Source: a virus
Taxonomy: Duplodnaviria; Heunggongvirae; Uroviricota; Caudoviricetes
IMG/VR virus record: IMGVR_UViG_2703718836_000012
Location: 1-35,817 of that record
DNA: 35,817 nt
Reading direction: 5' to 3' (one strand)
Numbering within the stretch: the stretch's first letter is position 1; each line of letters opens with the position of its first letter. The position numbers were made by a program. Below, one piece after another: positions 33,001 through 35,817 of the stretch.

Positions 33001-35817
33001 TGCGATAATTATGGAGGCCAGTGATTTGAATTAATCCTCTACCACGATATTTCCAGCCATCACCTGGTGCTTTGTTACCCAGTCGGTTGCTATACACCAG
33101 ATTGGCAATAGCATCCTGACGAGCTGCATGTCCGGATGTTCTGCCAAGGGCATCAGCCTGCTGCTGTGTGATCCTCTTTCCGAACGTCGCCACCAGCGCA
33201 GATGGTGTGTAGTTAAAATTTTCAACTACGGCGCTAAACCCCATCGACTCATGGCCTACCTGAGCGATAAACATTGCCTGATCCGCTGGTGCTGTAATGC
33301 CGAATTCCTTCATCGCCGCATCAATGTGCGGAAACCAGCGCGCAGCTAACCCGGCGCTAATAACAGCCGCCTGTTGAAATTGTGATTGGTTCATTAGTGC
33401 CTCAGAGCATCAATAAGACGCGCCACGTTTCCCCGAGCCCATAGCACGGCGGCGCATATCAGGATGTTAACGATGACTACCAGCCAGTGTGATTCCTGGT
33501 AGAGGCCGAACAGATAGCGGAACGGGATGCTGGCATAAACCAGCACCGTGAAATAAGCGAGAAGAGAAACTATCGGGCGATGTCTGGCACCGCCACGTTG
33601 GTAAAACATCAGAGCAATTACAATGACCGCGCAAATACCCGCATTGATCATCGCTGAAGGATCACTTGTTACCATTGCTGGTCCCTCCTCCACGCAATCG
33701 CGAAAGCATACTGAACAGGCTTCCTAGATCCTGACTGTTGATGAAGGTAAGAAGTTTGATGGCCAACGCAGCTACTGCCACTGCGCCGAGAGCATCAAGT
33801 GGCCTGTCGCTGTAGCCTGTCCATTTGGCAAGGTACGAACCAACAAGCCCAGCGCCAAGAACGCCGACAATAAACGATGTCACGAAATAGCCAACCAACT
33901 TCATCCTACTGATGTTTGCTGCTGTCGCTACGTAGAACACAGCTCCTGCGAAAGCGCCAAACACCACGCCATAATCAATACCAGTTGCGATACCAAAAAC
34001 ACTGGCTCCCATAAGGCCACCAGCGGCAACCGTAGTGCCAGAAACAGGATCGGACATTTAGCCCCCTCTTATTGCTGTGAGTCCTCTCAAAAAGAGGGAA
34101 AACAAAAAGCCACAATTAAGTGGCTTTTGATATTTTAATAAAATATATTTTATTTATTTAGATACTTATTAGCATCTGAAATGAATGACATATAAAGGCC
34201 AGCCCATCCCATTCCATCAACCATTGATATATGCCTCCCCTTAATTAATGAAGATAGCTTTTCTGAGATGGTATTTATTGATTTCTTAAACAATGCACCA
34301 TCTTCATCATCAGGAATAGAAATTAACAAGCTAACTTTAAATCTTTCCAGTTCTAATAGAGCCTCAGACATTTTTTCTTCTAAGCTTGTTAGCTTATATT
34401 GGATCATTGTTGTGCTAACAGAAACCCATTCGGCATGTATCTCTTTAACTTTATTAAGTTGGTATGCATACTCGCTAACTACCACCCTTAAATGCGCAGA
34501 ATAATGTCTTTTATTCTCTTGCTTTTGTTGATATCGGACAGACTCGTTATTTTGTCTAATCACATACAAAGATATCAGTGCTGGAACCAATCCACTAATA
34601 AATGCGGCTATAATCGTTTCGGAGGAGAATGAAGATTCTATAGAAATAGATGGTATTTTACTGATGCTAATTGTGTCTGCCAGCCGTTCCTGAACATAGA
34701 TAAAAGGAATCCCTAACCACATATCATTACCTTCCATTAGAAGTTTAAAAGGTAATGATAACAAAAAACCCGCACGCTGGCGGGTTCTTAATGTTTGTTG
34801 CTCTGTTCGCTTTTGCGTCCCGAGCGTAACACAATTTAAGCACCTTCTGGCTCACATTGCAACTTAAATCTGCTGCTATTTGTGCCGAATGCATCACACA
34901 TTGGTGCGTAAAGCATGAATTCTGCCAAACTTAGCCAGGAATCAATTCGGCGGCGGCAGGTCATGTAGCACCATTCTGGATGGCGCTTTTGAAGTTGCTC
35001 TGCCATGAGACGTTTGCTCTTGCGATAGCGGTATCTGTCCAGTAGCACATCAAACAATCCGTTATGACCATTTGAGATCAGCACAGCCGCGATAACGCCA
35101 TCAATGCATACACCCTCATCATCTGAGCAGAACGAAATGCCTGTCTTATTTTTGCCATCGATAATTTCACGAAAGAACGCTTCGAGCTCTGGTTTTGTCA
35201 GGCCTGACTTCTTCATGCGACGTAAAGCGTCATTGATGGCTGTCTTGGTGATTTTCCCGGAGGCCAGCAACTGGTTAAACATATTGCCGCCTGAGCCGCC
35301 GCCGATGAATGACCAGCGCCCCCACATACGCAGTTTGCCCTGTATCCATACACTTTCCAGTGTACGTAGTCGTGCCATTTCCCCGGATTTACCAACTTCG
35401 GAAGGATTAATCATTTTGCGTCTCCACTTACGCCAGTACGCCGGTTGCCAGCGCACGATCGATAAAACGAAATATCAGCTCCAGCTGGGAGCCATACTTC
35501 TCTTCAAATGCCACGGTATCCGCATGCAGCTCGTCGTGATGCTTTCTGCACAAAGGCAACACAAAGAGGTCATGCGCTTTTGTACCCATTCCACCCTGAC
35601 CGTGACCTATCAGGTGGTGGGCATCATCAGCAGGCTTTCCACAACATGCGCACGGCTGCGTCTTAACCCAGCGCGTGTACTTTTCATTAACCCAGCGGCG
35701 ACGTTTTGGGCGTAACATAAAAGACTCCGGCGACTCCGGATCCACTTTCAGCGCCAGCACCTTTTTCGCCTTATCCTGGATGATGCTGGTGGCAGGAACC
35801 GAAGGCACAAGGTCACT

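Follow-up and report, generated by a model that had tools for sequence, protein, structure and literature searches.

Cargo genes in the slot between the Q antiterminator gene and the lysis genes, the site of the Shiga toxin genes, are usually assumed to depend on prophage induction for their expression. Does a gene in this slot have to wait for induction? We addressed this question in a 35,817-nucleotide stretch of a Caudoviricetes virus (IMG/VR record IMGVR_UViG_2703718836_000012, positions 1 to 35,817; hereafter the window), where a 190-residue membrane protein of the family phrog_18859 is encoded in this slot (34150..34722, minus strand, ATG at 34722). The best explanation of our data is that positions 34110-34763 form a self-contained moron cassette between two tandem terminators that follow the late promoter. 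Such a cassette would comprise an extended -10 promoter placed directly against the T-tract of tR', followed by a 26-nt leader, the 190-residue gene and its own terminator. We consider this picture of the cassette and its regulation probable. It suggests a different solution for cargo in this slot, in which a gene inside the strongest late transcription unit can still be wired for expression in the lysogen while its late translation is blocked.

The putative cassette promoter is the extended -10 element TGTTATCAT (34755..34763, minus strand; predicted start ~34748). It lies directly past the intrinsic terminator T1 (34764..34789, minus strand), a tR' equivalent ~60 nt past the start of transcription from the candidate late promoter pR'. 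We compared the 110-nt stretches that precede 62 non-redundant genes of the family and found a recurrent layout. A GC-rich terminator and its T-tract often come first, TG-n-TA-n-n-n-T follows, and next to it is an inverted repeat with the Shine-Dalgarno (SD) sequence as its 3' arm. TGnTAnnnT occurred at most 60 nt from the ATG in 42/62 loci, compared to 7.5 +/- 2.5 in shuffled sequences, and its hexamer ended 18-36 nt (mostly 23-30) ahead of the ATG. When 32 of the leaders were aligned (A9), three hexamer positions (T, A and the last T) were invariant and the TG was more than 90% conserved. Because the motif is missing from the empty site of a related prophage (L020) and is also present in loci without a preceding terminator, we conclude that it belongs, as a sequence element, to the cassette. 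The predicted promoter has no -35 element; its activity and its start site near 34748 are inferred from the motif.

Overlapping this element, the leader can fold into a 15-bp hairpin (34722..34760, minus strand). Its 5' arm (34760-34746) overlaps the -10 hexamer and the discriminator, and its 3' arm (34736-34722) holds the SD sequence GGAAGG and the A of the ATG; the inverted repeat is thus able to pair with the ribosome-binding site. The window hairpin has a folding energy of -15.7 kcal/mol (z = -4.64), and 0/200 shuffled sequences were as stable. In a model read-through RNA, the leader hairpin forms right past the T1 hairpin. In the window, as in most relatives, the -10 motif is overlapped or directly adjoined by the 5' arm, with the start site in each case a predicted one.

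The arms are wholly different between loci (CCTT/AAGG, CCCCC/GGGGG, CTCC/GGAG, TTCC/GGAA) yet complementary, sometimes through G-U pairs. We used an alignment-free permutation test on 37 unique loci, pairing the segment from -10 to +12 of each locus with its own SD segment. Own pairs had a mean duplex energy of -10.7 kcal/mol versus -7.1 kcal/mol for cross-locus pairs, and 0/10,000 permutations reached the observed value. The SD core paired with nucleotides upstream of the predicted start with a probability of 0.67, compared to 0.36 for a shuffled segment (P = 2.5e-9). Its probability of being unpaired was 0.15 in RNA that includes the 5' arm and 0.44 in RNA begun 7 nt past the -10 (P = 6e-8). 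RNAalifold predicted no pairs when the leaders were aligned with MAFFT, since the loops vary in length and the register shifts from locus to locus, and an Rfam scan returned nothing above threshold.

The same inverted repeat could be read at the DNA level, as an operator that overlaps the cassette promoter and binds a dimeric regulator, with no RNA structure involved. In the window a perfect 11-15 bp palindrome does overlap the -10. However, an operator does not account for arms that differ completely from locus to locus yet stay complementary, nor for a 3' arm that is always the SD sequence. Several loci pair only through G-U (T-G), which is meaningless in duplex DNA, and in the loci examined no regulator gene travels with the cassette. 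We therefore regard an operator as very improbable and read the repeat as an RNA hairpin.

Since the anti-SD arm lies on and just past the -10, a transcript from the cassette's own promoter cannot form the hairpin. This geometry predicts that the protein is made in the lysogen and that its translation is silenced while Q drives late transcription, the reverse of the Stx2-like scheme. Before induction, a short mRNA from the cassette promoter would start inside the 5' arm of the hairpin. The SD sequence of this mRNA would be free and the protein would be made at a low level, while the cassette terminator T2 (34105..34128, minus strand), a bidirectional-looking hairpin with a T-run between the gene and the holin gene, would end the transcript ahead of the holin. 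After induction, Q-modified polymerase would read through T1 and T2. The resulting long transcripts would carry the full hairpin with the SD sequence and start codon buried, and late over-production would be avoided. We infer that the gene is translationally insulated from late read-through in this way.

A preliminary description of this DNA had proposed instead that the gene is transcribed only by Q-modified polymerase, a claim that the conserved extended -10 and the co-varying SD hairpin argue against. The corresponding alternative is that the gene is Stx-like cargo, for example a late exclusion protein or toxin, expressed only after induction through pR' and Q. Its hairpin would then be an RNase III processing site or an mRNA stabilizer that permits translation; RNase III cleaves the leader hairpins of lambda N and other phage genes. 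The gene occupies exactly the position of stx, the strong terminator T1 stands directly upstream, and the missing -35 element also fits this alternative. However, the conserved TGnTAnnnT keeps a fixed spacing to the ATG even in loci that have no terminator ahead of it. The consistent placement of the 5' arm at or just past TGnTAnnnT is also left unexplained if the motif is no promoter. Induction-only expression is, in our view, unlikely.

The same 801 bp is present at 99.8-99.9% identity in 5/5426 complete E. coli genomes, and comparison with relatives shows what happens at the slot elsewhere. In a prophage of E. coli strain 219 (L020) the slot is empty: 157 nt with two tandem terminators separate the Q-like gene from the holin gene, one of the hairpins is homologous to T1, and the window gene sits between the equivalents of these two terminators. 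Another locus (L018) has a different allele between Q and holin proteins that are 97% and 96% identical, respectively. By blastn, the non-homologous block corresponds to 34110-34750 of the window. Klebsiella phage 1 LV-2017 (L021) has a TciA-like gene in the slot, which comes with ~600 nt of extra sequence. In other E. coli prophages (L101-L103) the same slot holds an SDH-family Clp-fold serine proteinase, a 111-residue acidic protein or an IS5-family (ISKpn26-like) transposase gene. Family copies have also decayed. In ARL09/232 (L019:3110-3688, minus strand) a stop interrupts the allele after 25 codons and only a 127-residue C-terminal fragment is annotated, a second copy is truncated at 123 residues (L010:6001-6372), and in phage LLS (L100:2469-3103) the gene is split into genes 49 and 50. 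The idea that the slot occupants are all unrelated morons proved only partly true, as 2/5 of the alternative occupants first examined were divergent or decayed superfamily alleles.

Because relatives have the slot empty or filled with other cargo, a different allele or a pseudogene, the gene is dispensable to this phage module: it is non-essential, accessory and exchangeable, and the Q-holin slot in this phage group is a cargo hotspot. Three of the features expected of a moron are found here. The genes on either side of it are neighbors in a relative (L020), its GC content is 0.347 compared to 0.50-0.51 in the 2 kb on each side, and its own factor-independent terminator lies downstream (34128..34105). 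As for a promoter of its own, the extended -10 is present at the sequence level and a -35 element is not. The deviant composition is general, with all family genes examined at 31-39% GC and their flanks mostly at 45-55%; the exception is a short locus (L022) whose downstream flank is as AT-rich as the gene. A terminator-like hairpin was found at most 160 nt past the stop codon in 48/56 family loci.

The 111-residue occupant deserves separate mention. In E. coli GDSC2BY4G (L102:1800-2370, minus strand) this unrelated acidic soluble protein is encoded between the same two terminators, and its leader has a -10-like TATATAA followed by AACCTC, which is complementary to the SD sequence GAGGTT. The fold-back layout may, to judge from this leader, be general for cargo in the Q-holin slot.

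We also asked whether 34150..34722 is a real gene. It is contained in a longer mechanical open reading frame (ORF), 34150..34764, and the same 573-nt coding sequence is annotated by RefSeq in identical E. coli prophages as the hypothetical protein WP_040080223.1. Every homologue begins with the same MW... residues, which supports the ATG at 34722 as the start codon. In a codon-level comparison of unsaturated homologue pairs at 46-69% identity, the ratio of nonsynonymous to synonymous substitution rates (dN/dS) was 0.10-0.30. This ratio indicates a real gene under purifying selection and no chance ORF. Selection differs along the protein, with dN/dS of 0-0.11 for residues 1-85 and 0.12-0.36 for the C-terminal remainder.

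The window protein matches phrog_18859 (PHROGs v4) over its full length, residues 1-190 (E = 1.9e-56). This family has no annotated function. An exhaustive profile search of 1.84 billion representatives yielded 66 proteins of ~200 residues, mostly aligned over much or all of their length, and 66/66 of these superfamily representatives match phrog_18859. A search of 5.8 billion proteins gave 24 clusters at 46-99% identity, all hypothetical, from Escherichia, Klebsiella, Enterobacter and Citrobacter; the family as a whole also extends to prophages of Cedecea and Morganella. In the alignments made here, its members share an N-terminal M-x-W-x-G-[IV]-P-[FY], a K-[IL]-P ... F-[SA]-W-[ED] segment in which hydrophobic and polar residues alternate, a single transmembrane (TM) helix and a variable helical region. 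The conserved N-terminal tail has the amphipathic pattern ISISKIPSISIE, and longer members add NRQxWINxLR and a C-terminal EWxRVK. The window protein carries this signature (MWLGIPF...KIP...FSSE, TM helix 37-55).

Searches elsewhere returned little. Among 50,697 GenBank phages, tblastn found no match for the window protein, and a long-type relative gave one partial, split match, in phage LLS. A scan of genome contigs with patterns from an alignment of the family (A1) found no relative, and GTDB species representatives seem to be without these prophages. Neither the window protein nor the relatives scanned received a Pfam, NCBIfam or PADLOC assignment of weight. The sole PADLOC match, KwaA (E = 0.0088), was rejected after ten distant relatives gave only scattered weak matches. 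Our literature search found no paper on this protein or on phrog_18859, and papers on Tai and svsR proved irrelevant.

We scanned the neighbors of 58 non-redundant loci, from viral contigs and assemblies, against Pfam. The ORF directly upstream encodes a Q antiterminator in 42/54 loci, of type PF06530 in 20 (13 of them also DUF1133), PF03589 in 17 and PF06323 in 5. Directly downstream is a holin gene in 31/55 loci, from the families holin_8, holin_2_1/2_3, holin_3_1 and holin_3_3, and in most loci the second ORF downstream is again a holin or endolysin gene. With three Pfam Q families upstream and at least four holin families downstream, the family is tied to the slot behind Q and to no single Q or holin type.

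What kind of protein occupies this slot? The preliminary description had reported a single-TM protein with a helical domain, and this is what we find. Only the segment at about residues 37-55 is strongly hydrophobic (KD19 2.4, compared to 0.9 for the next best), and the domain that comes after it is all-helical. AlphaFold2 with a 66-sequence alignment gave a model with a predicted local distance difference test score (pLDDT) of 87.9. In this model, residues 1-33 are coil (pLDDT ~56-71) and residues 34-105 form one continuous helix, its TM part at ~37-55, that packs with three further helices into an up-down four-helix bundle. Mean charges are +2.0/-4.3 in the N-terminal flank and +5.3/-3.1 in the 25 residues past the TM helix, and in 65/66 members there are more lysine and arginine residues on the C-terminal side of the helix than on the N-terminal side. 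By the positive-inside rule, this charge bias suggests a single-pass inner-membrane protein with its N terminus out and its C terminus in. The best-conserved part of the superfamily is the predicted periplasmic tail of ~33 residues together with the TM helix. The predicted cytoplasmic bundle is fast-evolving and is swapped between otherwise near-identical prophages.

The helical domain also occurs outside the family. In a set of phage proteins (L074-L091) the similarity is confined to the C-terminal helical domain ("NRQxWINxLR ... EWxRVK") and the N termini are different, and three of them (L083, L086 and L088) have a second TM helix after this domain. Because these proteins share the domain with other N termini, the predicted bundle is a wider membrane-anchored module.

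What would such a protein do? Small inner-membrane moron products of enterobacterial phages are commonly exclusion or abortive-infection factors, and HK97 gp15 is an example. Our preferred assignment, a tentative one that we hold with somewhat less than even confidence, is a phage-exclusion or membrane-acting abortive-infection protein expressed in the lysogen. We favor it because of the moron wiring, the inner-membrane location, the patchy distribution, the allele swapping and the pseudogenes, together with the pattern of conserved anchor and variable domain and the precedent of proteins such as gp15. The protein would guard the lysogen against other phages at the inner membrane, either by blocking entry or through membrane-acting abortive infection. 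Specificity would come from its variable cytoplasmic bundle, with the conserved tail and TM helix acting as the effector or the anchor. Shielding from late expression would make sense if an excess of the protein disturbed the membrane and mistimed the holin.

Its position next to the holin gene raises the alternative that it is an accessory factor for lysis (antiholin, lysis-timing modulator or other membrane helper), produced late from transcripts that Q has antiterminated, and the preliminary description had listed a lysis modulator among its candidates, beside superinfection exclusion and abortive infection. The gene is indeed always co-oriented with the late operon, usually stands directly upstream of the holin gene and encodes a membrane protein, and one subfamily (A3) has no promoter motif of its own. 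However, single-holin antiholins keep one partner, whereas this gene precedes at least four unrelated holin families as well as pinholin systems. Phages whose holins are 85-96% identical lack the gene, have it swapped or carry it as a pseudogene, and it can thus be missing beside near-identical lysis cassettes. A terminator separates it from the holin gene in 48/56 loci, and its SD sequence is predicted to be occluded in read-through RNA. The window already holds two holin-family genes, a GH19 endolysin and Rz/Rz1. Strong homology to a core lysis or structural protein, which the preliminary description had named as evidence that would tell against its view, was looked for as well: the window protein matched no lysis family in Pfam or PHROGs and no core structural protein. 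A role in lysis is disfavored by these results, and we judge it quite improbable.

A lysogenic-conversion factor outside defense would also be expressed in the lysogen, and could act in envelope stress tolerance, colonization or signaling, as with bor, lom and porin morons. The hypervariable cytoplasmic domain, with its alleles swapped between near-identical flanks, looks more like conflict-driven diversification, and the family is confined to prophage late regions. A conversion role of this kind is improbable, and we retain an anti-phage role as the preferred assignment.

Several results weigh against our interpretation. The firing of the -10 element and the transcription start are predictions from sequence, and the hairpin could be an RNase III or stability element instead. 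A cruder fixed-window measure of SD accessibility (-14..-5, terminator included), which was replaced by the SD-core measure with shuffled-arm controls, separated the family only weakly from control genes (P = 0.07). A Morganella-type subfamily, A3 (L027, L093, L098 and L099), has neither the -10 motif nor the SD hairpin. For the protein, charge bias is the sole basis of the N-out topology, the four-helix fold is generic with no informative structural relative, and the Pfam, NCBIfam and PADLOC scans gave no match to a known exclusion, abortive-infection or defense family. We see the combined explanation, cassette and regulation together with anti-phage function, as evenly poised between right and wrong.

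The A3 loci show an arrangement of their own. The gene follows directly after a terminator (GGGGTTTTTTATTGAGAGGAC..ATG), and a promoter-like element lies ahead of that terminator. These genes may, from this layout, depend on read-through, and expression logic appears to differ within the superfamily.

The surroundings of the cassette agree with the preliminary description in all respects. At its right end the window contains the genes for late regulation and lysis of an e14-like lambdoid E. coli prophage, read on the minus strand in the order DUF968/HNH, Q-like antiterminator, 190-residue gene, Phage_holin_8, Phage_holin_3_7, GH19 endolysin and Rz/Rz1. The gene had been placed between Q and the holin, and this is confirmed. 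Upstream is a Q-like antiterminator gene (34836..35414, minus strand; DUF1133/Phage_antitermQ, Pfam E = 2.4e-97 and 1.3e-8), whose product PHROGs labels "anti-termination protein Q-like", and downstream is the Phage_holin_8 gene (33662..34057, minus strand), the first holin gene and the start of the lysis cassette. A candidate pR' and tR' had been proposed ahead of the gene. We likewise find a candidate pR' (34834..34862, minus strand) ahead of T1, with TTGCAA (34862-34857), a 17-nt spacer and TTAAAT (34839-34834), the latter preceded by TGc as in an extended -10. It overlaps the Q stop codon and is kept in all DUF1133-type relatives; at 8/12 consensus positions it falls below the threshold of the promoter scan, which did not list it. 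The flanking terminators that had been noted correspond to the hairpins at 34789..34764 and 34128..34105, and the terminator scan found 5 terminator-like hairpins in the region versus 1.8 expected. The gene had been described as AT-rich at ~33% GC, close to the measured 34.7%, and as a moron in the stx slot, a view borne out by the empty slot of L020 and the unrelated cargo of other relatives.

Three further features of this region were observed. A 106-residue ORF (31824..32144, minus strand), for which RefSeq gives "GrlR family regulatory protein", sits in a second low-GC island (~31700-32400, GC 0.36-0.42) between Rz1 and the HNH/terminase genes and is probably another moron. An intact 130-residue Rz-like ORF (32391..32783, minus strand) overlaps the Rz1-like lysC; its equivalent in AL.H8 is an incomplete DUF2570 pseudogene in RefSeq. 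The predicted ~60-nt transcript from pR' to T1 (34764..34839, minus strand) has a sub-threshold Rfam match to isrJ (21 bits versus a gathering threshold of 37, E = 0.36), which is probably due to chance or a distant echo of prophage late-leader RNAs.

Morons in the stx slot and fold-back inhibition were both already known. New in this work are a definition of the superfamily, its strict linkage to the Q-holin slot whichever of the three Pfam Q families stands ahead of it, and the conserved -10/anti-SD architecture, none of which we found in the literature searched. If our interpretation is true, it provides a simple sequence rule for predicting the expression timing of morons in late regions, a testable role as well as a name for a membrane-protein family that is so far unstudied, and a candidate new single-gene exclusion or abortive-infection determinant. 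A wider proposal would be that phrog_18859 is a new class of prophage inner-membrane anti-phage effector that has spread into the Q-holin slot of lambdoid phages with all three Pfam Q families, and that morons in antiterminated late operons generally guard against late over-expression by a fold-back hairpin whose anti-SD arm is placed between the -10 and the start site of the moron. This proposal is speculative, and we would sooner doubt it than assert it.

How does the cassette compare with known systems? For the protein fold, the closest known systems include the four-helix-bundle sensor domains of the chemoreceptors and histidine kinases Tar, PcaY, NarQ and QseE. The window protein does not belong to the 4HB_MCP-type sequence families and does not have their TM1-bundle-TM2 architecture.

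For gene organization, the classical lambdoid morons are closer. HK97 gene 15 and lambda bor and lom are reportedly promoter-gene-terminator cassettes inserted between conserved genes, and HK97 gp15 is an inner-membrane superinfection-exclusion protein. Like these morons, the present cassette separates two genes that are neighbors in a related prophage, deviates in composition, is dispensable, has its own promoter-like element and terminator, and encodes a small membrane protein. The window protein showed no similarity to gp15, Bor, Lom, Cor, SieA/B, Imm or RexB, either in sequence or in any specific feature of the fold. The cassette also differs in its position at the very start of the late operon, and to our knowledge an SD-occluding hairpin has not been described for morons.

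The stx1 and stx2 genes share the slot and orientation of the cassette and, like it, are inserted downstream of the late promoter and terminator. In Stx phages this cargo lies between Q/pR'/tR' and the lysis genes, and stx2 depends on pR' and Q for its expression (PMC6266700). In contrast to stx2, the cassette is predicted to have an independent promoter and a translation block on read-through RNA, and its product is a membrane protein, whereas Stx is a secreted AB5 toxin.

The regulatory logic is most like that of IS10. In IS10/Tn10, fold-back inhibition is said to shield the transposase from external read-through transcription. As in IS10, an inverted repeat has its 5' arm ahead of the start predicted for the cassette's own transcript, this arm can pair with the ribosome-binding site, and only externally initiated transcripts would form the hairpin. 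The cassette differs in that it lies in a phage late operon and not in an insertion sequence, in that its effect on translation is a predicted one, and in that its 5' arm overlaps the -10 itself.

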